From the IMG/VR virus record IMGVR_UViG_2799113139_000004: a stretch of DNA of 64,000 nt. One strand, written 5' to 3'. The stretch comes from a virus. Its lineage: Duplodnaviria > Heunggongvirae > Uroviricota > Caudoviricetes. The notes under the pieces were generated by a model that worked only from the letters and a program-made list of their open reading frames with translations, was not told where the DNA came from and did no database searches. Position 1 is the first letter of the stretch; the number at the start of each line of letters is the position of its first letter. Positions 12,043-25,854 of this stretch are shown piece by piece. Both the position numbers and the translations under genes were made by a program.

Positions 12043-12251
12043 GTGAGTTGACTAACCGTGTTCGTGAGGTCGCCCGAATGGTCATCGCGGACGCTGAAGA
12101 TGATGTGCAGAGATTCAACGGCAAGCGTCTGACCGGCGATCTAGTCGGTGAGATACAAGGCTGCACCAATGGTCTCATCTTCGGTCTGGCGAGCTGCATA
12201 GAGAATCTGGCAGACGAGATCGATCGCCTAGATCAACCGAAACAGCCATGA
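12039..12251 (+). CDS. Hypothetical protein
   Basis: 70-aa ORF with ATGA overlap. Confidence 0.4.
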   Translation: MSELTNRVREVARMVIADAEDDVQRFNGKRLTGDLVGEIQGCTNGLIFGLASCIENLADEIDRLDQPKQP

Positions 12252-12943
12252 CCATCGGATACTTCACCAGTTGCGCGGCATGCGGCGAGCTGTTGCGCAT
12301 CGAGCGTGACGACCAGCGCATTCACGACACCTGTGAGGAGCCGTTGCCGTCGCGCGCCGACGTGTTGCAAATGGAACTGCGCGCGTGCGTCTACATGGGT
12401 GATCAACAGAAGCTCGAAGCGGAGATCATCGCCGAACTCGACCAGATCGAGAGCCGACCACCGAACCTGGGGCTAGCGGCGGTCACGTACGCCACCGAAT
12501 ACGGCTGGCCAGTGTTCCCGCTGCTCCCAGGCGGCAAGAAGCCGGCCATCCCGAAGAGCGCTGGCGGCAATGGATTCAAAGACGCGACGACCGACGTCGA
12601 ACGCATCAAGAAGTTCTGGACCAAGAACCCGACGTGCAACATCGGCGTGCCGACCGGCATTCACTTCGACGTGATCGACGTAGACCCACCGAACGGCATG
12701 CTGTCGTATCTGGAGCTGGTAGGCGATGGTCTGCTGCCCGAGGTGCATGGACAGGCCAGGACGCCGCGTGGGCTGTTCCATCTGTTCATAGAGCCGACCG
12801 GCGACGGGAACTCGGCCGACATGAAGCCCGGCATCGACTACCGCGGAGCGGGCGGTTACGTCGTCGTCGCACCATCGATCGTCGGTGAGCAGCGGTATCG
12901 ATGGGCGGTCAAGCCCAGTCCGAAACTTAAACCAGTGGGGTGA
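12248..12943 (+). CDS. Bifunctional primase-polymerase (prim-pol) N-terminal domain protein
   Basis: GWPVFPLLPGGKKP ... NIGVPTG ... VIDVD motifs match the prim-pol domain; N-terminal Cys cluster. Confidence 0.6.
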   Translation: MTIGYFTSCAACGELLRIERDDQRIHDTCEEPLPSRADVLQMELRACVYMGDQQKLEAEIIAELDQIESRPPNLGLAAVTYATEYGWPVFPLLPGGKKPAIPKSAGGNGFKDATTDVERIKKFWTKNPTCNIGVPTGIHFDVIDVDPPNGMLSYLELVGDGLLPEVHGQARTPRGLFHLFIEPTGDGNSADMKPGIDYRGAGGYVVVAPSIVGEQRYRWAVKPSPKLKPVG

Positions 12944-15970: not shown

Positions 15971-16419
15971 AGATGAAGCGAGAGGCCATCATCGCGGCCG
16001 CCGATGAAGCGATCGCCAAGTACGAGGCCGACAAGATTCGGTACGCCAACGAGGTCAAGGAGTGGCAGCAGAAGCGCCGCGAACGCTGGTTTGCAGAGGA
16101 TCTGCCACATCTGAAGGCATTGCGCGACATGCTGACTCAGAAGATCCGGCATGGTGAGACCATCTCGTACGACGAGATGAAACGAGCCGTCAGAGCGCAT
16201 GACGGCTGGGGTCAAGTCAGTGATCACGCATGGGCCGAGGATCGCAACCCCAACTCACGCGAGGTCAGCCCGCCGATTCGCATTGACGTGGATGGGCTGA
16301 AGGCGCTGAAGCGGACTATCGAGGCCATCAGTGACCCCGAGGTCAGTGACGGTCAACTGGAGCGTCTGGGCTTCCGCAAGATGTACAACGTCTTCCGTGC
16401 CGCTGCTGGCGTGCCGTGA
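15967..16419 (+). CDS. Hypothetical protein
   Basis: GTG at 15967 or ATG at 15973; 150 aa, coiled-coil-like N-terminus. Confidence 0.45.
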   Translation: MKMKREAIIAAADEAIAKYEADKIRYANEVKEWQQKRRERWFAEDLPHLKALRDMLTQKIRHGETISYDEMKRAVRAHDGWGQVSDHAWAEDRNPNSREVSPPIRIDVDGLKALKRTIEAISDPEVSDGQLERLGFRKMYNVFRAAAGVP

Positions 16420-16613
16420 TGATGACCGAAACCACGATCGAAACGGGCAAGGCACAGACGCTAGGCGAGATCGAAGATCTGCTCGCGAAGGCGTATCAGC
16501 TCGGAGGCAACCGCGATACCCGCTGGAGTGTGGTGAGCAAGGTATGTGGCGGATACGAATTCACGGGTGATGCCAAGGAGTTTCAGGCCATCAGCGTGAA
16601 GTTGACGAGCTGA
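16416..16613 (+). CDS. Hypothetical protein
   Basis: 65 aa; start overlaps the upstream stop. Confidence 0.4.
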   Translation: MMMTETTIETGKAQTLGEIEDLLAKAYQLGGNRDTRWSVVSKVCGGYEFTGDAKEFQAISVKLTS

Positions 16614-16698
16614 CTGCACGTCGGCGCACGCGCGGGGGTCAGTGCGCCGACGTGGCCCACAATGAGAGCAGTCGCAACACTGCCGAAGGGAATGCTTC

Positions 16699-16905
16699 GT
16701 GACGACGACCGACATACCCCAACATCAGATCTGCGGGCCGAAGTCGCTGATAGATCGCGTTATCGCCGGTGAAGAACTACTTGAGCTGACGCGCGAAGAG
16801 TTCGCTAATGCCGAAGGCGAATGGGTGGCAATCTCGGTGCCCGAGAAGGTCGCTCAGCGCTGGGCCGCTGTCGGCTCGCAGTCCGGCGAGCTATGGCCAG
16901 CGTAA
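16699..16905 (+). CDS. Hypothetical protein
   Basis: GTG start; 68 aa. Confidence 0.35.
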   Translation: MTTTDIPQHQICGPKSLIDRVIAGEELLELTREEFANAEGEWVAISVPEKVAQRWAAVGSQSGELWPA

Positions 16906-16908
16906 ACC

Positions 16909-18567
16909 GTGACGACGATGAGCGACGAGAACAACGACGACACACCTGACGATGCAGCCGAACCGGAAGACGCTGGCGATAACGTCATCTCATTCAAGGA
17001 GCGCTTGCGTCGCGCGGGGCATCTGAACACCCCGAAGCCCAATCCCGCTCCACCACCTAGACGTTTACCACCCGGCGCTGAGCTGCCGGGCGAAAGCCGT
17101 TACGGCCGGGTCGCTCTCGATGACGAGCTGACCATTCTTGCCAACACTCCCGAGGGTTCGCGGAATCAGCAGCTCAACACCAGCACGTTCAACCTCGCCG
17201 GTCTGGTGCGCCGCGGTGAACTCGACGAGCAGACCGTCATCAACGAGCTGATCAGCACCGCCCGCGGTATCGGGCTGGATGAATCCGAGATCATGCCGAC
17301 GATCAGATCGGCGTTCCGCGGCAGCGACCACAAGGTGGGGGCGCGCGTGGTGCCCGAGCGCGACGAAATCCCGCCCGCGTTCACGATCGATCCCAACGAG
17401 CTGCCGACGCAGCACACCGAGCCCGACGATGACACGAACGAGTTCGACAGCGACGACCAGGCCGACGCGGATCACCTGGCGCTGCACCGTACGCGCGTTG
17501 TGCGCGCCGCTTATGAGCTTCGCGTGTCAGACGAAGGCCGGGCGCTCTACGCGGCCCAGCAGGCTCACGAGCTGGGCCAGATCGCACCCGAGCCGGTATC
17601 GCTGACCGACTTCTTGAGCATTCCCGATGAGGATGCGGTCTACCGGATAGGCGAGCTGCTGCCCATCGGCGGCCGAGCGCTGCTGGCGGCCCAGTACAAG
17701 GCCGGCAAGACAACGATGATGGCCAACCTGCTGCGCTCGCTGGCCGATGGTGTGTCATTCCTGGGCCGGTTCCCGACGTCGCAGGTCGAGCGCGTGACGG
17801 TGATCGATACCGAACTCGATGAGCGCATGTTCCGCAGATGGCTACGTGCGCAGGGGATTCAGGACACTGACCGGGTTCAGGTGCTCCCGATGAAGGGGCA
17901 CCTCGCGACGTTCAACATTCTGGACGCCACCACGCGCGCCCAGTGGGCCGAGAAGGTGCGCGGCAGCGACTTCATCATTCTGGACTGCTTACGGCCATGT
18001 CTGGACGCGCTGAACCTGTCCGAGGACAAGGACGCCGGTAAGTACCTGGTCGCCTGGGATGCGTTCGTGGCCGAGGCCGACGCGTCGGAGTCGATCGTGG
18101 TGCATCACATGGGACATAGCGCCGAGCGCAGCCGCGGGGACTCACGCCTACTGGACTGGCCCGACGTTCTCTGGAAGATCGTGCGCGAGCAGGTCGAGGA
18201 AGGGGAGGACCCCGCAGCCGATGGGGGCAAGCGCTTCTTCTCCGCGCACGGGCGAGATGTGGCGGTCGCTGAAGGTTTGCTGGAGTACCAGCCCGAGACG
18301 GGCGGGCTCGTCTTGCTGGAGGGTGGCCGGGCTGCCACGAAAGCGCGCGACGGGCTACCGGCGATCGTGCAGATCTTGTCCGATCCTGACTACATCGGCG
18401 GGCTTGGGACGCGCCAGTTGACGACCAAACTGACCGAGACGGGCATGAGTTTCCATGCCGCCCGGAGGGTCATTCAGACCGCCATCGATGAGTCGGTCAT
18501 CTACGTCGGAGAGGGTGCCCGAAATGCGCGAATCCTATCCCTGAACCCATCGGCGAAGCCGCTATGA
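16909..18567 (+). CDS. DNA primase C-terminal (PriCT-like) plus AAA/RecA-like P-loop NTPase; candidate replicative primase-helicase or initiator
   Basis: Walker A (AQYKAGKTTMMANLL), Walker B-like (FIILDCL), and an N-terminal region resembling PriCT_1 (RYGRVALDDELTILANTPEGSRNQQLNTSTFNLAGLV). Confidence 0.55.
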   Translation: MTTMSDENNDDTPDDAAEPEDAGDNVISFKERLRRAGHLNTPKPNPAPPPRRLPPGAELPGESRYGRVALDDELTILANTPEGSRNQQLNTSTFNLAGLVRRGELDEQTVINELISTARGIGLDESEIMPTIRSAFRGSDHKVGARVVPERDEIPPAFTIDPNELPTQHTEPDDDTNEFDSDDQADADHLALHRTRVVRAAYELRVSDEGRALYAAQQAHELGQIAPEPVSLTDFLSIPDEDAVYRIGELLPIGGRALLAAQYKAGKTTMMANLLRSLADGVSFLGRFPTSQVERVTVIDTELDERMFRRWLRAQGIQDTDRVQVLPMKGHLATFNILDATTRAQWAEKVRGSDFIILDCLRPCLDALNLSEDKDAGKYLVAWDAFVAEADASESIVVHHMGHSAERSRGDSRLLDWPDVLWKIVREQVEEGEDPAADGGKRFFSAHGRDVAVAEGLLEYQPETGGLVLLEGGRAATKARDGLPAIVQILSDPDYIGGLGTRQLTTKLTETGMSFHAARRVIQTAIDESVIYVGEGARNARILSLNPSAKPL

Positions 18568-18586
18568 CCGAGCAGCAGATTCGCAA

Positions 18587-18745
18587 CGACTGTTTCAGTG
18601 TTTCAGCGAGTGAAACAGTCAAAATGAAACAGTCAGAAACGGTTGCGAGTTGCGACTGTTTCAAGAACCCTAAAGGGTTCTTGAATACAGGTCGCGAAAC
18701 ACTCGCCCTGGAACCGGGTTTCAGACTTGGGCTGAAACAGTCGAA
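18587..18745. repeat. Iteron-like array of GACTGTTTCA / TGAAACAGTC repeats plus the palindrome CAAGAACCCTAAAGGGTTCTTG; candidate replication origin
   Basis: At least 5 copies of the 10-mer in both orientations within about 160 bp downstream of the primase-helicase gene. Perfect 10-bp-arm palindrome at 18663-18684. Confidence 0.5.
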
Positions 18746-18892
18746 GAGAAACACACCCGCCGTTTTGGAGCGCTCCGCGTTGGACGTGGGTCGCTTGTCT
18801 TTGGCCTCTGAATCAACCACTGAAGCTATGAACATGAACCAATGGGTGATTGAGCGCCAGACGTCAGATCGACCGTCAGAGGAGGTCCTGGG

Positions 18893-19351
18893 ATGCCAGA
18901 AGCGATGAAGCAACCGGTGAGCGATTCCTCACCACCACCGTTCGTCTCGTTCTTCGTGCCGGGGAAGCCCGCCCCGCAGGGTTCGAAGAAGCACGTCGGC
19001 CACGGCCGCATGATCGAAAGTTCGAAGGAACTTGGATCGTGGCGATCAGACGTCGCAGTGTTCGCGCAACAGGCCATGGCTGGTCGCTCGATCTACACCG
19101 CGACTGGATTAGCTGTCGAGCTGACTTTCATCGTGCCGCGTCCAGCGTCGTCACCGAAGACGTACACCAAGCCAGCCATCAAGCGGCCAGACCTGGACAA
19201 ACTGGAGCGCGCAGTTCTGGACGCACTGACTCACGTCGTTTTCGATGACGACTCGACAGTCATCGATCTGCGCGGCCGGAAGCGCATCGCTGAGATCGGT
19301 GAGACGCCGGGTGTTTCGGTCTTCGTGACGCCTACGCAGGTGGTGGCGTGA
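18893..19351 (+). CDS. RusA-like Holliday junction resolvase
   Basis: FVPGKPAPQGSKKH and VFDDDSTVIDL match RusA family motifs. Confidence 0.7.
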   Translation: MPEAMKQPVSDSSPPPFVSFFVPGKPAPQGSKKHVGHGRMIESSKELGSWRSDVAVFAQQAMAGRSIYTATGLAVELTFIVPRPASSPKTYTKPAIKRPDLDKLERAVLDALTHVVFDDDSTVIDLRGRKRIAEIGETPGVSVFVTPTQVVA

Positions 19352-19458
19352 TGGAACCTGATCCGATACTGCAAGCACTCATCCTCGGGCTGATCTTCGG
19401 TGTACTCATCGGCTTCGTCCTTGGTGCGGCGCTCTGCTCACAGGTGGTCGCCTCATGA
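19351..19458 (+). CDS. Small membrane peptide (35 aa)
   Basis: ATG overlaps the RusA stop; single TM (ILQALILGLIFGVLIGFVLGAAL). Confidence 0.35.
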   Translation: MEPDPILQALILGLIFGVLIGFVLGAALCSQVVAS

Positions 19459-19601
19459 TCGGCGTGACGTTCGGGGCGCAAGAGCCTGGCTGGTGCCATC
19501 TCTGTGGCAAGACGTACCCGCGGGATGCTCGGGTGACGTACCGCAGCCACGACGAAGAACCGGTGCATCTGGAATGCGCGGAGCTGATCGATGGCCGGTA
19601 G
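19455..19601 (+). CDS. Small zinc-ribbon-like protein (48 aa)
   Basis: ATGA overlap; CHLCGK ... HLEC. Confidence 0.35.
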   Translation: MIGVTFGAQEPGWCHLCGKTYPRDARVTYRSHDEEPVHLECAELIDGR

Positions 19602-19836
19602 ACCGTTTCAGGCGAAGTACGAAGGTCACTGCTTCGAGTGCGGCGAGATGATCAGCGTTGGCGAAGGTGTGATGTTCGACGATGACGGCGATCTCTGCCA
19701 CGAAGGCTGCTATACGGATTCGACGTCATTCGATCCCACTGGCGACGATGAGGTGAAGCGCGTCAAGTTCGTGCCGGTGGCCGAAGAGAAGCCTTGCGAG
19801 AAGTGCTATCTCGTTCACGCTGGGGACTGCTTCTGA
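19591..19836 (+). CDS. Small Cys-rich zinc-binding protein
   Basis: CFECGE ... CHEGC ... CEKC. Confidence 0.45.
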   Translation: MAGRPFQAKYEGHCFECGEMISVGEGVMFDDDGDLCHEGCYTDSTSFDPTGDDEVKRVKFVPVAEEKPCEKCYLVHAGDCF

Positions 19837-19838
19837 CG

Positions 19839-20198
19839 ATGACCACGGATCAAGAGGTGTTGCAGCAGCTCGACTTCACACCCGAACCGATGCGGTGCGA
19901 GTGCAGAACGTGCGGTACCTCGGAGGTTGGACACAAAGGTGAATGCGATCGAAATGCTCTGTACAGCACTGAGATACACGCGATCGACCATTGCAACGAG
20001 GCTGGTCTGACGCAGAGCGGAGGCGTCTCGCGACTGCTCTGCCATCGGTGCGCGATGGCCTGGCGCGCACACGTCACTTTGGTCGCCAAAGGCAATCAGA
20101 AGCTCTATGACAGAGAAGGTTTCATCATCAAGTGCGTCACCTGTCAGCGTCCATTGGTCAAGGTGAAAGACCTGCTGAGCCTGGAGGTGCTGAAGTGA
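19839..20198 (+). CDS. Cys-rich zinc-binding protein
   Basis: ATG at 19839 overlaps the upstream stop; multiple CxxC pairs. Confidence 0.45.
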   Translation: MTTDQEVLQQLDFTPEPMRCECRTCGTSEVGHKGECDRNALYSTEIHAIDHCNEAGLTQSGGVSRLLCHRCAMAWRAHVTLVAKGNQKLYDREGFIIKCVTCQRPLVKVKDLLSLEVLK

Positions 20199-21103
20199 CC
20201 GAGATCAGACGATGCAAGGCTGGCCGCTTGTGCGACGGGTACGAGGTGGTCGGTGGCCAGAGGCGACCGGCGCAGCTCATGCACGACCATCACCTTTGCG
20301 AACCCTGCATGGTCCGCGTGCGAAAGATCATGCGCCGACTGCCAAACGAGTGGTGCAAGCTCAAGCTGACCATCGGCGAGAAGCGTTCGCGCGGTGCGCA
20401 AGAAGAGGTCAGTCGTCGGCCCAAGCCTGGTTCCAAGGTGCTGATCAACGTCGATACCGCCGAGCTGATGGGCGAGATCGTACTCATCTGCGACGAGGCC
20501 ACCCGCGGCGTTCTGAAGTCTATTGAGCGCGAGCATCGTCGCGGCTACCCGGCGCTTGGCCGGTCGACCGCCGACCGCTACGACTTCGCGATCGTGCTCA
20601 AGGCTGTCGATGTCGTCACGCATGACATCGGTGTGCTGGCAAGCAGTTCCGAGGGCGTGATGATCTGCCTGAAGCTGCTCGATCTGGCTTATCGCATCCG
20701 CCGGCACCTTGGCGAGACGCTGTACCGCGAGCGTCAGCACTTGCCCTGCCCGTCGTGCGGCGAGCTGGCTTTGGTGAAAGAAGTTCAGGACAAGCGCGGC
20801 CGGGTGAGTTCGGACGATCAGGAGGACATCACCCCCGAGGTCATCAGATGCCTGGCGTGCAACGGCGGCCCGAATCAGAACGGCACATGGACCGAGACCG
20901 AGTACCGCTGGCTGGCGAAGATGGTTCTGTCCGAGCGAGAGGAGCACGAGATGCTGAAATGGCTACTTGCAGAGGCGCAGTGGAAGGGTGACGTGAACGC
21001 CTGGCTGGCCGCCGAACGTCTGTGGCTTCTGGATCTTGCGCGCGCTACCACCGGCATGCCGATGGAAGACTTCATCGCGGCGCTCGAAAGATCAGTCACA
21101 TGA
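20195..21103 (+). CDS. Hypothetical protein with CxxC motifs (possible DNA-binding regulator)
   Basis: GTG at 20195 overlaps the upstream stop; CDGY ... CEPC and CPSCG ... CLAC motifs. Confidence 0.45.
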   Translation: MTEIRRCKAGRLCDGYEVVGGQRRPAQLMHDHHLCEPCMVRVRKIMRRLPNEWCKLKLTIGEKRSRGAQEEVSRRPKPGSKVLINVDTAELMGEIVLICDEATRGVLKSIEREHRRGYPALGRSTADRYDFAIVLKAVDVVTHDIGVLASSSEGVMICLKLLDLAYRIRRHLGETLYRERQHLPCPSCGELALVKEVQDKRGRVSSDDQEDITPEVIRCLACNGGPNQNGTWTETEYRWLAKMVLSEREEHEMLKWLLAEAQWKGDVNAWLAAERLWLLDLARATTGMPMEDFIAALERSVT

Positions 21104-21477
21104 CGACCACTCATGTTCACGTCTACCGGGAGTCGCGCGAGGCTCGCAACAAGCGCATAGCCATCACAGCGATAGACCTGCTGACGCGCATCGTCGCCGG
21201 CGACATTAGCGATCCGGCAGCAGCGCTGGCCAGGTTCCATCAGGAGCGCATCAACGAGCACGTGTACTGGACTCAGCCGAGCACCATGCCCTACGACCCT
21301 GATCAGTGGTTGACCGCCAATGAGATGGCCGAGATCGCCGATGTCGAACCAGGGACCGTGCAGAAGTGGAACCACCGCGGCTATATCACCAGCTCAGAAG
21401 CGCACGACGGTACGAAGCTCTACAACGTCGGAGAGGTCAACCGGCTGCTGGCAAAGCGTCAGCGGCGACAGGACTGA
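21100..21477 (+). CDS. HTH DNA-binding domain protein (excisionase/MerR-like)
   Basis: LTANEMAEIADVEPGTVQKWNHRGYI is an HTH similar to Xis-type domains. Confidence 0.5.
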   Translation: MTTTHVHVYRESREARNKRIAITAIDLLTRIVAGDISDPAAALARFHQERINEHVYWTQPSTMPYDPDQWLTANEMAEIADVEPGTVQKWNHRGYITSSEAHDGTKLYNVGEVNRLLAKRQRRQD

Positions 21478-21525
21478 ACTACACTTGACACTGCACCTCT
21501 TCCGCTGGTGCAGTTGTTGTGATGG

Positions 21526-21560
21526 CGAAGGCCCTCCGTGCAAACGGGGGGCCTTCGTTC
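21526..21560 (+). terminator. Stem-loop terminator candidate
   Basis: GAAGGCCC-loop-GGGCCTTC hairpin downstream of 21477. Confidence 0.4.
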
Positions 21561-21685
21561 GTCTGTGGCTCAACCGAGGCGCGCCGTTAACGTCTTCAAT
21601 AAACCAGTGGTACTAGACACGTCGTACACTGGGCTACTGACAGATCCATCTCAAAATCAGGTCCAGGCCCCTGCGGGAGGCGATT

Positions 21686-23110
21686 TTGGCTGCATCAGTG
21701 CTGATAGATGGGGTCGAGTTCATTCCGTCGTACAGATCGGAACGGCCGCGGGTTGGTGTAGCCATCACGACACGCAATCGCCCCGACGTTCTCAAGACGA
21801 CGCTCGAACATATTCGACAGTTCACGCCTGACGCACTGGTGGTTGTCGTAGACGACGCCTCAACACCACCAGCACCCGAGGCGACCTACCGATTCAGCGA
21901 ACGCGCGGGCGTCGCCGCAGCCAAGAACAAGTGCATCGAGCTGCTGATGGACGCCGGTTGTACCGAGCTGTTCCTACTCGATGACGACTGCTACCCGATC
22001 ACCCAAGGCTGGGTCGATCAGTACATCGACCATCCCGAGCCGCATCTCTGCTATCTCTTCAAGACGCTGGACGCGAACGGCAAGCCAGTCGGCACGCCGG
22101 CCACCATCTACGAGGACAGTCGAACCAAGGCGTTCGATCACCCGATGGGCTGTCTGCTCTACATGAACCGCAGCGTGATCGAGCGGTGCGGTGGGATGCG
22201 AACAGTCTTCGGCGTGTGGGGCCATGAGCACGTCGAGTACAGCATTCGGATCAACAACAGCGGCCTGACCACCAATGCTTTCCAGGACGTCGCCTGGTCG
22301 TATCAGTACATCTACTCGATCGATGAGCACTGGTACAAGCATCCTGAGTTCAAACGAAGCGTCAGCGATCGCGAACGAAGTGCGCAGATCGCACGCAACG
22401 ACGAGATCCTTGACGGGATGCGCGAGAGCACAGTCGGTTTCGTGCCCTACCGACAGCTCGGCAACGAGGTCATCACCACCATGTTGACGAGAGTGGTTGA
22501 CCCGCAGCGCAAGAATGCGGCGAAGCTGACGACGAATGACTTCGCAGCCTGGCGCAAGTCGATCAAGGGTGCCAAGTCCGTCATTCTGACTGATGCGCCG
22601 TGTGAAAGCGATGGCGGTGAGTTTGCGAGCGTTGAGCACGGCCTGAATCCGTATCTCCAACGCTGGATCGTCACCTATCACCACCTGCGCGAGCATGAGA
22701 GCGCATGGGTATGGGTCACTGACGGAACTGACGTCGAGATGCTGAGCCAACCATGGCTGATCATGAAGCCGGGCACGCTGTATGTCGGTTACGAGCCAAC
22801 GGTTCTGGACATTCCATGGATGCGGCAGAACCATCCGCCGTATCAGCAGTGGATAACAGAGAACGGCGATCTTCAACTACTCAACGCTGGCGTGGTCGGC
22901 GGCGATCACGCGACGGTTCTCGAGTTCAGCTCCGACATGGTGCGCGAGATCTTTCGCGTCGGACCTGGCGCAGTGAAGGGTGACATGGCCGCGTTCAACT
23001 ACGTTGCGCGGTCGCCCAAGTGGCGCGACAGGATCGTATGGGGTAGTCGCTGGCTGACGACGTTCAAGGCCAACGAACGCAACGACTGGAGCGTCTGGAA
23101 GCACAAATGA
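21686..23110 (+). CDS. Glycosyltransferase (GT-A fold, family 2-like)
   Basis: VGVAITTRNRPD, VVVDDAS and the DxD motif LLDDDCYP. Confidence 0.7.
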   Translation: MAASVLIDGVEFIPSYRSERPRVGVAITTRNRPDVLKTTLEHIRQFTPDALVVVVDDASTPPAPEATYRFSERAGVAAAKNKCIELLMDAGCTELFLLDDDCYPITQGWVDQYIDHPEPHLCYLFKTLDANGKPVGTPATIYEDSRTKAFDHPMGCLLYMNRSVIERCGGMRTVFGVWGHEHVEYSIRINNSGLTTNAFQDVAWSYQYIYSIDEHWYKHPEFKRSVSDRERSAQIARNDEILDGMRESTVGFVPYRQLGNEVITTMLTRVVDPQRKNAAKLTTNDFAAWRKSIKGAKSVILTDAPCESDGGEFASVEHGLNPYLQRWIVTYHHLREHESAWVWVTDGTDVEMLSQPWLIMKPGTLYVGYEPTVLDIPWMRQNHPPYQQWITENGDLQLLNAGVVGGDHATVLEFSSDMVREIFRVGPGAVKGDMAAFNYVARSPKWRDRIVWGSRWLTTFKANERNDWSVWKHK

Positions 23111-24795: not shown

Positions 24796-25104
24796 GTGGT
24801 GTGGTCGGGTGACGGCCGCGGCACAGGAACCGACGTACCTGCGTCTGTGAGACGCGCTGTACGCATCAGAGACGGCGATCAGTGTCAGTTGCGCTACGAC
24901 GGCTGCACGGGCGACTACGAAGAGCTGGACCACATAGAAGGCGTGGCTGAGCGTGGTGTCGATCGACGCCGCACGTTGACCGTCGATGAGCTGCAATGCG
25001 CTTGCCGTTGGTGCCACAAGCAGAAGACGGCAAAGCAGGCAGCCCGAGGTAGGTCGCGCAATCGATGGCGGGAGTCCGAGCCACACCCTGGTCGCGGTCG
25101 CTGA
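24796..25104 (+). CDS. HNH endonuclease
   Basis: DHIEGVAERGVD ... CACRWCHKQK matches the HNH motif. Its position just upstream of the terminase is typical. Confidence 0.7.
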   Translation: MVWSGDGRGTGTDVPASVRRAVRIRDGDQCQLRYDGCTGDYEELDHIEGVAERGVDRRRTLTVDELQCACRWCHKQKTAKQAARGRSRNRWRESEPHPGRGR

Positions 25105-25371
25105 CCAGCAAACAGGGATGGGGAGGCAACCCCCTGGGGGTACCCAAGGTCCCCGGTTGGCATAGGCGCTAGGACTCCGCCTACCTCTGGGGTTTTCCGA
25201 TCGGGCCGAAATGGCCTTTGAGCTGCGGAAATGACTGTTTCACTGAGTGTTTCACCACGTCGAAACGGTCGCGCTGGTCGAGCCCCTGAGCTGCGACAAG
25301 CCCGAATCGTCACCCAGGACGCAACGTCCGCTACTGCCCGCAACGGTGCAGCTAACTAGATCGGAGCAATC
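25105..25371. promoter_or_regulatory. Putative cos/packaging region containing GACTGTTTCAC / GTGTTTCAC / GAAACGGTC repeats
   Basis: Non-coding region between the HNH and small terminase genes. The repeats are related to the 18587-18745 array. Confidence 0.4.
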
Positions 25372-25854
25372 ATGGCTGGAATAGGACCGCCTCCCAAGGA
25401 CTCAAGCCGCCTGGCTGGGCATGGTGCAGCAAAGAAGCGTGATTCAGTGCTCCGAATCATCACAGCGACACCCGTTGAGCAACCGCCGTTGCCTGAATTC
25501 GACCTCGAAGTCACCGTTGACGGCAATGTCGTAACGCAGAAGTTCAAGTGGCCGCCGCGGACTCGTGAGTGGTGGCAGATGTGGAAAGACTCGCCGCTCT
25601 CGGCAGAGTTCACGTCCACCGATTGGTCCGAGCTGCTGGACACCGCCGTTCTGCACGCCCGCTATTGGTCTGGCGATCACAAGGTCGCCGCGGAGCTGCG
25701 GCTCCGTGTCGCGAAGTTCGGTGCGACGCCGGAAGATCGCGCTCGGTTGCGCATTCAGTTCGCAGCCGCCAACGAGGCCGACAAGAAGCAGAGCCAGCCG
25801 AGCGAGAAGCCGGGTGGTGGCTCCAAGGGTCGGTACGGTCCGCTAGGCGCTTAG
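25372..25854 (+). CDS. Terminase small subunit
   Basis: Position immediately upstream of the large terminase; 160 aa with the typical charged C-terminus. Confidence 0.6.
   Translation: MAGIGPPPKDSSRLAGHGAAKKRDSVLRIITATPVEQPPLPEFDLEVTVDGNVVTQKFKWPPRTREWWQMWKDSPLSAEFTSTDWSELLDTAVLHARYWSGDHKVAAELRLRVAKFGATPEDRARLRIQFAAANEADKKQSQPSEKPGGGSKGRYGPLGA

Follow-up and report, generated by a model that had tools for sequence, protein, structure and literature searches.

The 64,000-nucleotide stretch of DNA analysed here (the window) is a viral record of the class Caudoviricetes (IMG/VR record IMGVR_UViG_2799113139_000004). Over positions 16000-22000 it matches Mycobacterium phage prophiFSQJ01-1 (BK061312.1) at 100% identity. 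This phage is a prophage of Mycobacteroides abscessus assigned to cluster MabR, and a BK061312.1 position minus 1847 gives the window position. Within this region gene 37, which encodes a helicase (gp37), is followed by annotated gene 38 and by gene 39, which encodes RusA (coordinates in Table 1). Our subject is an array of short repeats, or iterons, that lies directly 3' of gene 37 and that we regard as a candidate origin of replication, together with a smaller cluster of the same repeats near terS, the gene for the small terminase. Four other phages, prophiFSAT01-1, McProf, prophiFVLQ01-1 and prophiFSIL01-1, are about 75-77% identical to the window over the alignable parts of the region. The five MabR phages compared are called FSQJ, FSAT, FVLQ, FSIL and McProf below. 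A scan of IMG/VR for the array matched the same MabR prophages only, so it added no diversity.

The array consists of nine units with the core NN[T/C]GTTTC at 18589-18755, in the order + + - - - + [palindrome] - - -, and its first unit begins 22 bp past the helicase stop codon. As 8-mers, the nine copies read A[C/G][T/C]GTTTC in both orientations. An earlier note on this DNA, made from the sequence alone, had reported a 10-mer repeated at least five times in both orientations. That count stands: exact copies of GACTGTTTCA occur at 18588(+), 18611(-), 18625(-), 18654(+), 18733(-) and 25233(+), five of them in the array. With up to one mismatch the window holds 11 matches, compared with 3.3 +/- 1.9 in shuffled sequences, and 0 of 100 shuffles reached 11. 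The 7-mer TGTTTCA occurs 10 times in the 64 kb, six times within the array and twice at 25236 and 25248. No cluster of three or more NN[T/C]GTTTC units was found in the window besides 18589-18755 and 25234-25269. When the DNA of the five MabR phages was aligned, the iteron blocks were unchanged and the spacers variable, and the flanking genes were about 75% identical. We conclude that the iterons are real, non-random and under purifying selection at the DNA level.

Stoperator-like or start-associated repeats are a feature of cluster A and K phages. We rejected this class for the present repeats because they form just two clusters in 64 kb. Two further iteron-like units, each with one mismatch and both on the plus strand, lie inside annotated genes 41/42 at 19602-19635 (GACCGTTTCA at 19601 and another at about 19628); they probably arose by chance.

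Between the two iteron sets lies a perfect palindrome, as the earlier note had observed; inverted pairs are numerous here too. Its arms (18660-18671 and 18674-18685) are 100% complementary, and the stem of about 15 bp folds as single-stranded DNA with an energy of -13.3 kcal/mol (z = -6.6). The GC content is 0.505 at 18500-18699, against 0.60-0.68 in the flanks, and nowhere else in the profile of 14-28 kb is it lower. Compensatory changes keep the stem: it reads AAGAACCC/GGGTTCTT in FSQJ and AGAAACCC/GGGTTTCT in FSAT and FSIL, and the inner stem of FVLQ is wholly different (AAGTTTTCTC/GAGAAAACCTT). In all of these versions the z-score of the hairpin fold is between -5.7 and -7.2. A further hairpin described in the earlier note, GTTTCAG..CTGAAAC, is indeed present at 18718-18724 and 18732-18738, but among the MabR phages the pair is specific to FSQJ. 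A relative from M. fortuitum (L096) also has a palindrome, centred on CCCTTAAAGGG.

The palindrome centre CCCT(T)AAAGGG is common to MabR (18660-18685) and L096 (L096:1698-1829), despite helicases that are only 54% identical and different iterons. Possibly this centre has a function of its own, for instance as the place where melting starts or where a host factor binds.

Residues 232-402 of gp37 match Pfam AAA_25 with E = 1.4e-21 (77.4 bits, against a gathering cut-off of 27). We built an AlphaFold model of gp37 from 24 homologues, and it contains a confident N-terminal helical bundle (residues 61-139), a RecA-type core and a confident C-terminal domain (470-545) in the order H-H-H-H-beta-beta. 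In a Foldseek comparison with the PDB the best match was RSF1010 RepA (1g8y, E = 3e-7), followed by DnaB; a search of PDB chains with the gp37 sequence returned nothing at E <= 1. The C-terminal domain was also modelled alone (mean predicted local distance difference test score, pLDDT, 81), and Foldseek then matched it to the ORC2 winged helix and to the DNA-binding domains of MarR/MepR and Fur/Zur, with probabilities of 0.99-1.0. Helix 498-507 of this domain has R499, and the predicted recognition helix, 512-524, has F512 and R516. The models indicate that gp37 is a RecA core of the RepA/DnaB type (helicase superfamily 4, SF4) with a winged helix at its C-terminus.

The protein had been described in the earlier note as a 'PriCT/AAA primase-helicase'. 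The AAA part of this description is borne out by the AAA_25 match, but the PriCT_1 match is below threshold (E = 0.062; 13.4 bits against a cut-off of 21.1), although it extends over positions 7-63 of the 67 in the profile. The primase is encoded separately, by the primase-polymerase (prim-pol) gene 24, so the description is only approximately right. Residues 62-162 of gp37 match, in tblastn, DS6A gp85 and prophiGD proteins annotated as 'DNA primase/polymerase'. In five homologues (P0060, P0070, P0083, P0085 and P0101) a Prim-Pol domain (PF09250) is fused to the AAA_25 helicase, and in the homologous locus L088 a prim-pol is encoded directly upstream of the helicase. These arrangements suggest that gene 24 is likely the priming partner of the gp37 helicase.

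To place the array in a wider family we used the 24-homologue alignment as query and collected 80 loci from GTDB genomes, mostly of Actinomycetota, whose helicases are 38-57% identical to gp37. For 63 of these 80 loci, the 220-bp window with the highest repeat density in about 9 kb of locus starts between -150 and +400 bp from the end of helicase homology; about 6% would be expected to do so by chance. The arrays hold 6-17 iteron copies in both orientations, and the iteron cores form one family, A-[G/C]-T-[G/T]-[C/T]-N-[C/T]-C (A-S-T-K-Y-N-Y-C). Examples are AGTGCGTC, AGTGCGCC, AGTTCGTC, AGTGTCCC, AGTGTGCC and ACTGTGCC, and the MabR units ACTGTTTC and AGTGTTTC fit as well. Helicases whose C-terminus cannot be aligned to that of gp37 are accompanied by other repeat families or by none. 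The helicase family is nearly absent from the plasmids in PLSDB (1 match). In the phage collection 13 records match the helicase, and a near-full-length close match occurs in the five MabR records only.

If the iterons are binding sites for the helicase, the two should have changed together, and this is what the family suggests. The covariation set comprised 46 dereplicated loci, with residues 495-530 taken as the winged-helix segment. In a partial Mantel test, iteron distance was correlated with winged-helix distance when the ATPase domain was controlled for (r = 0.43, permutation p = 0.0005), whereas iteron and ATPase distances were not correlated when the C-terminal domain was controlled for (r = -0.06, not significant). 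Three residue-base pairs stand out by mutual information. Iteron position 7 goes with residue 512, which lies in the recognition helix's first turn (z = 16): in 21 loci the residue is R or K and the base C, and in 18 the residue is Q and the base T. Position 4 goes with residue 499 (z = 13), where R is found with G in 30 of 30 loci and N, S, A or G with T in 13. Position 6 goes with residue 516 (z = 8). Arg-guanine and Gln/Asn-adenine are familiar protein-DNA contacts, and the covarying pairs follow the usual pattern of Arg to G and Gln/Asn to A/T.

On a tree of the ATPase domain, position 7 requires at least 17 changes and the class of residue 512 at least 19; because the joint character takes just 20, about 20 residue-base switches appear to be coupled, and many of them independent. 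For example, the ATPase domains of L026 and L035 are 85% identical, yet one has the Q/T pair and the other the R/C pair. The M. fortuitum relative L096, which stood outside the fitted set, fits both the 512 and the 499 rules. Because the iteron bases covary with residues 512, 499 and 516 and not with the ATPase core, it is most likely gp37's own winged helix that reads the iterons. The shared layout and this covariation both strongly favour the earlier note's proposal of an iteron origin immediately 3' of the helicase gene.

Several members of the family have features of their own. In six loci (L016, L026, L027, L035, L042 and L047, from Streptosporangium, Nocardiopsis, Allonocardiopsis, Herbidospora and Nonomuraea) the helicase frame stays open for 400-500 nt through the array. 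The array of L035 reaches 17 copies. The open frame in these loci may be chance read-through or a real C-terminal extension. In Mycolicibacterium elephantis (L087:8322-14960, ATDN01000005) the module lies in an island of about 7 kb, beyond which is the host argS. This island encodes an integrase, HTH_17, DUF6011, the AAA_25 helicase with an 8-copy AGTGTGCC array, a capsid/protease fusion and Terminase_4. From its gene content it looks like a phage satellite, of the phage-inducible chromosomal island (PICI) or phiRv1-like kind, with the same helicase and origin module. L088 has the helicase and array module in a full prophage.

The earlier note had also seen related copies of the repeat beside terS, and these proved to be three units in a second cluster, 6.5 kb from the main array. 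The three unit variants are the same three that are used in the main array. From 56 loose hits in 64 kb we estimate that triplets within 40 bp would arise by chance about 0.03 times per window. The cluster is kept in FSAT, FVLQ and FSIL while neighbouring bases diverge, so that, with FSQJ, it is conserved in four of the five MabR phages. In McProf, three reverse-strand genes (two for membrane proteins and one hypothetical) are inserted between a cos-like block and terS. The insertion occupies record positions 25047-27061 (L006:348-2362), compared with window positions 25105-25371, and leaves a degenerate GTAAACGGCC. In the stretch of McProf that was scanned (record positions 12181-68223) the second cluster is gone and no other additional iteron cluster was found.

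The second cluster is real and is probably bound by gp37. The suggestion that one protein serves both sites is plausible, given that the same three variants occur at both, but McProf does without the second. The second cluster therefore appears to be lineage-specific and apparently dispensable, at least in the McProf lineage if McProf is viable; its loss there argues against a strict need for it. It could be an auxiliary cis site like crr of P4 or a second origin, or it could connect replication with late transcription or with packaging. Within +/-4 kb, 4 of 53 homologous loci (L017, L025, L035 and L049) have a secondary iteron cluster, and two-site arrangements thus recur sporadically in the helicase family. 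The secondary cluster of L017 (L017:840-1251) holds 11 copies and lies about 4 kb upstream of its main array. No iteron cluster was found near the terminase genes of L087 or L088.

The cos-like block lies between an HNH endonuclease gene (24796-25104) and terS (25372-25854), and the second cluster is 60-100 bp to the right of the invariant block (25150-25170 onward). The nearest isolated phages by TerL, the large terminase, belong to cluster S (54.6% identity), in which some 11 kb separate the terminase from the end of the genome. The block aligns weakly to the junction of the right and left ends of one of them, Marvin, whose TerL is 54.6% identical; a distant blastn search with 25100-25400 matched only the five MabR records. 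Because it depends on this weak junction alignment, the assignment of the block as the cos cleavage region is tentative. Two other differences were seen here. At 25280-25350 FSQJ has about 70 extra bases between the second cluster and the start of terS, relative to FSAT, FVLQ and FSIL, and in these three phages a GCGCGAAACGCGC palindrome immediately follows the iterons of the second cluster.

Neither the main array nor the second iteron site gave an Rfam or tRNA match when 18-26 kb was scanned. At 21473-21563, between the helix-turn-helix (HTH) gene 45 and a glycosyltransferase gene, there was a sub-threshold Rfam match to the small RNA BjrC68 (E = 0.086; 20.7 bits, where the gathering score is 39); it is most likely due to chance.

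Table 1. Positions of the iterons, the palindrome and associated genes and domains (window coordinates)
Feature	Position	Strand	Remarks
Gene 24, prim-pol type DNA primase/polymerase	12248-12943	+	from annotation; separate from the helicase
Gene 37, initiator-helicase candidate, 549 aa	16918-18567	+	annotated 'DnaB-like dsDNA helicase' in BK061312.1
N-terminal four-helix domain of gp37, PriCT-like, residues 61-139	17098-17334	+	pLDDT about 90-96
C-terminal winged helix of gp37, predicted iteron reader, residues 470-545	18325-18552	+	pLDDT about 85-93
Gene 38, 'hypothetical protein'	18564-18908	+	spans the array and the spacer before rusA; probably non-coding
Left iteron set	18589-18662	both	18589(+) ACTGTTTC, 18597(+) AGTGTTTC, 18612(-), 18626(-), 18636(-, ACCGTTTC), 18655(+)
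Central palindrome/hairpin	18656-18690		perfect part 18660-18685, core CCCTAAAGGG; lowest-GC part of the region
Right iteron set	18696-18755		18696(-) AGTGTTTC, 18734(-) ACTGTTTC, 18748(-) TGTGTTTC
Degenerate unit GGGTTTCA	18717	+	within the right iteron set
Gene 39, RusA	18905-19351		
Conserved block TCCCCGGTTGGCATAGGCGCT, then CTCCG...GGGTCTGG-like motif	25150-25200		nearly invariant in the five MabR phages; candidate cos
Second iteron cluster	25234-25269		25234(+) ACTGTTTC, 25246(+) AGTGTTTC, 25262(-) ACCGTTTC; about 100 bp upstream of terS

Several known replication systems share parts of this layout. The origins of staphylococcal pathogenicity islands (SaPIs) lie immediately 3' of rep, have 6-12 iterons on both sides of an AT-rich centre and are read by a C-terminal winged helix (PMC9371898). 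As in the SaPI pri-rep-ori module, the MabR array is directly 3' of the helicase gene and has nine iterons in opposed sets around a lower-GC centre. The helicase would double as initiator through its predicted C-terminal winged helix, the primase is separate or fused upstream, and a gp37-type module is also found in a small integrase-capsid-TerS island (L087). In contrast, SaPI Reps belong to the pre-sensor II insert clade of AAA+ helicases, whereas gp37 is a RecA-fold AAA_25 protein without sequence homology to them; the MabR iterons are 8-10 bp long and those of SaPIs 5-6 bp, and the host phylum is Actinomycetota. Because the best structural matches of gp37 are RSF1010 RepA and DnaB, which have the RecA fold, we regard its module as one that may work like a SaPI origin by analogy and not as a homologue of it. 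RSF1010 RepA shares both the ATPase fold and the Pfam family AAA_25 with gp37. It is not known to have a DNA-recognition domain, and iteron binding in RSF1010 is done by a separate initiator, RepC. gp37, unlike RepA, has its own predicted winged helix and an N-terminal PriCT-like domain.

In phage P4 one set of iterons is found at both ori and crr, which are several kb from each other. FSQJ resembles P4 in this respect, as its two iteron clusters, the only ones in 64 kb, are 6.5 kb apart. The alpha protein of P4 is a helicase whose C-terminal winged helix recognises the origin (PMC2777425; PDB 1ka8). It fuses a DnaG-type primase to a superfamily 3 (SF3) helicase, whereas gp37 is of the SF4/RecA type with a separate prim-pol, and the second MabR locus is missing in McProf. 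In the archaeal plasmid protein pRN1 ORF904 the order is primase, helicase and winged helix (PMC2777425), and another report places an essential cis region of about 166 bp immediately downstream of the gene (PMC4234260). As we propose for gp37, ORF904 is an initiator-helicase with a cis site directly downstream of its gene; unlike gp37, it has an SF3 helicase, an archaeal host and a stem-loop site with no demonstrated iteron code.

RepAM is an initiator of pMEA300 and related integrative conjugative elements of actinomycetes. Its binding sites are several identical 8-bp repeats that lie where its own gene ends (3') and are capable of forming a hairpin, and it has homologues in prophages (PMC2440964). 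RepAM proteins are defined by DUF3631, and prim-pol genes are often adjacent to theirs (PMC3218068). The likeness to gp37 is one of layout only: 8-bp repeats and a hairpin 3' of an actinobacterial initiator gene and, in several Streptosporangiales loci of the gp37 family, a helicase open reading frame (ORF) that reads through the array. For RepAM elements, a rolling-circle mode that employs a pC194-like nick site has been proposed. A search of full-length gp37 with hmmscan at E <= 10 did not detect DUF3631 (PF12307) and returned AAA_25 alone; we rejected membership of gp37 in the RepAM family because it lacks DUF3631.

The paper that describes cluster MabR does not mention an origin or these repeats (PMC9434293). 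Literature on mycobacteriophages, AAA_25, iterons and origins yielded unrelated RepA or RNA-based prophage origins (PMC7157519), besides the SaPI, pRN1 and RepAM precedents. In the literature searched, whose coverage was incomplete, we found no description of a module of AAA_25, winged helix and 3' iterons or of a recognition code for it. An iteron origin beside its initiator is of an expected kind; the AAA_25 variant and its breadth appear to be new.

Based on these comparisons, we propose a model in which 18589-18755 is the replication origin of the phage and is recognised by the helicase gp37. We consider this likely. The replication activity itself is something that we infer by comparison. 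The site would consist of two opposed sets of 8-bp iterons that flank a lower-GC hairpin palindrome, directly 3' of the gene of the protein that binds them. Protomers of gp37 may dock on the iterons via the winged helix, and hexamers would then assemble on either side of the palindrome and melt or extrude it. In this way gp37 could load itself without a separate loader. It may recruit the gene 24 prim-pol, perhaps via its N-terminal PriCT-like domain, and replication would begin after induction. The three iterons at 25234-25269 would be a second, weaker binding site for gp37. We propose the docking, melting, self-loading and prim-pol steps because of the analogy with SaPI Rep/ori, P4 alpha and pRN1 ORF904.

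One challenge to this model is that the array lies within an annotated gene. If 18564-18908 were genuine (gp38), the repeats would be a by-product of coding sequence or would coexist with it. The frame is open and annotated in all five MabR records, and in 5/5 its ATG overlaps the helicase stop (ATGA), which suggests translational coupling; this pattern of open frame and overlapping start is the sole evidence that gene 38 codes; it weighs against our interpretation, and ribosomes may translate through the array. Against a gene, however, the differences between FSQJ and the other phages are spread evenly over the codon positions of gene 38 (31/39/39 and 47/45/48), whereas those in the helicase gene are 90/66/230 and rusA, gene 44 and gene 45 also have a strong third-position excess. 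The ratio of nonsynonymous to synonymous substitution rates (dN/dS) between divergent pairs is 0.57-0.74 in gene 38 and 0.03-0.21 in those four neighbours. In FVLQ, indels of +4, -1, +1 and -1 shift the middle third of the gene 38 'protein' into a different frame. The conserved residues 'REVLGC' at the C-terminus correspond to the Shine-Dalgarno GGGAGGT plus the ATG of rusA, and the product has no match in Pfam or PHROG. In a metagenomic relative whose helicase is 57% identical, no gene was called in the 296 bp from the helicase to RusA, and in L096 (54%) the gap is 227 bp and its only ORF has 43 codons. The L096 gap carries seven CAGTTTCC iterons in the order + - - + [ GGGGCCCTTAAAGGGGCCCC ] - - -. 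Because relatives at 54-57% identity are without a comparable ORF and L096 has the array layout, these sequences indicate that it is the architecture of array and palindrome that is conserved, and not the ORF. The repeats also lie on both strands, and long spurious ORFs (over 114 aa) abound in DNA this rich in GC; one of them, 18497-18913 (-), crosses the same region. We therefore agree with the earlier note that the ORF is probably spurious and gene 38 probably not protein-coding; a genuine gp38 seems very improbable to us, and we suggest that this 'hypothetical protein' be removed from all five GenBank records.

Other doubts concern what binds the repeats, and why. The covariation, being a comparison of sequences, speaks to the helicase tail reading the repeats and not to the purpose of binding. 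The tail might thus bind a regulatory site, for autoregulation or handcuffing, or as a roadblock or attenuator before rusA, with replication starting elsewhere. RepAM of pMEA300 is a precedent, since a regulatory role has been discussed for the 8-bp repeats that it recognises at its gene's 3' end (PMC2440964). The MabR array, moreover, is inside an operon between two genes, and the second cluster is upstream of the late operon. Yet scans for consensus sigma-70 promoters and intrinsic terminators found no site at either cluster, though consensus rules are weak for mycobacteria. Inverted iterons around a low-GC palindrome 3' of a helicase gene are also the documented layout of functional SaPI origins, and the layout is kept in very distant relatives, including satellite-like islands of about 7 kb that need an origin of their own. 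A purely regulatory site is thus unlikely in our view. It is less likely still that a different protein, such as the small terminase, the HTH protein gp45 or the phrog_1568 DNA-binding protein gp44, binds the repeats for packaging or partition, with 25234-25269 acting as a cosB-like site. Lambda-type cosB sites do lie between cos and terS, as the second cluster, with its two direct units and one inverted, would if the block at 25150-25170 is cos, but the family-wide covariation ties the iterons to the helicase winged helix and not to the ATPase core. Elements whose packaging modules are unrelated also have the array after the helicase gene, McProf retains the cos-like block and terS without the second cluster, and L087 and L088 are without an iteron cluster near their terminase genes. 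Some further points count against an origin read by gp37. Our literature search yielded no replication, binding or melting experiment on this phage or helicase family; the palindrome centre is about 50% GC, hence only relatively AT-rich, and is no classical unwinding element; the C-terminal domain taken alone matches its Foldseek hits with weak E-values (0.01-0.07); and a second helicase (gene 21) and further DNA-binding proteins are encoded by the phage, which makes a different or additional origin possible. On balance we retain the proposal that gp37 initiates replication at the array beside its gene.

This proposal would give the cluster MabR prophages, which occur in M. abscessus and M. 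chelonae, a probable location for their lytic origin. It also defines a testable minimal replicon, composed of the helicase, the array and possibly the prim-pol, for Mycobacteroides, where vector origins are few. The module is widespread in Actinomycetota prophages and satellite-like islands, and the covariation predicts which helicase fires which origin; the predicted pairing bears on superinfection, on relations between satellites and helpers, and on plasmid and phage engineering. The self-loading initiator-helicases known from SaPIs, P4 and pRN1 would also extend to RecA-fold SF4 helicases, which normally depend on a separate initiator or loader.

Beyond this we put forward a conjecture in two parts, which is tentative and which we hold to be possible rather than probable. 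Its first part is that there is a very large undescribed class of actinobacterial prophages and satellite-like islands in which an SF4 helicase of the RepA/DnaB fold is its own origin recogniser, with a simple, predictable amino-acid-to-base code set in its C-terminal winged helix; its second is that the MabR helicase also docks beside cos. If true, the code would assign C to R and T to Q at residue 512 (iteron position 7), and G to R and T to N or S at residue 499 (position 4). Origin specificity, incompatibility and cross-talk between helper and satellite would then be readable from sequence and could be re-engineered. If the helicase docks beside cos, the initiation of replication would be coupled to late transcription or packaging, or the phage would have a second cis site like crr of P4.

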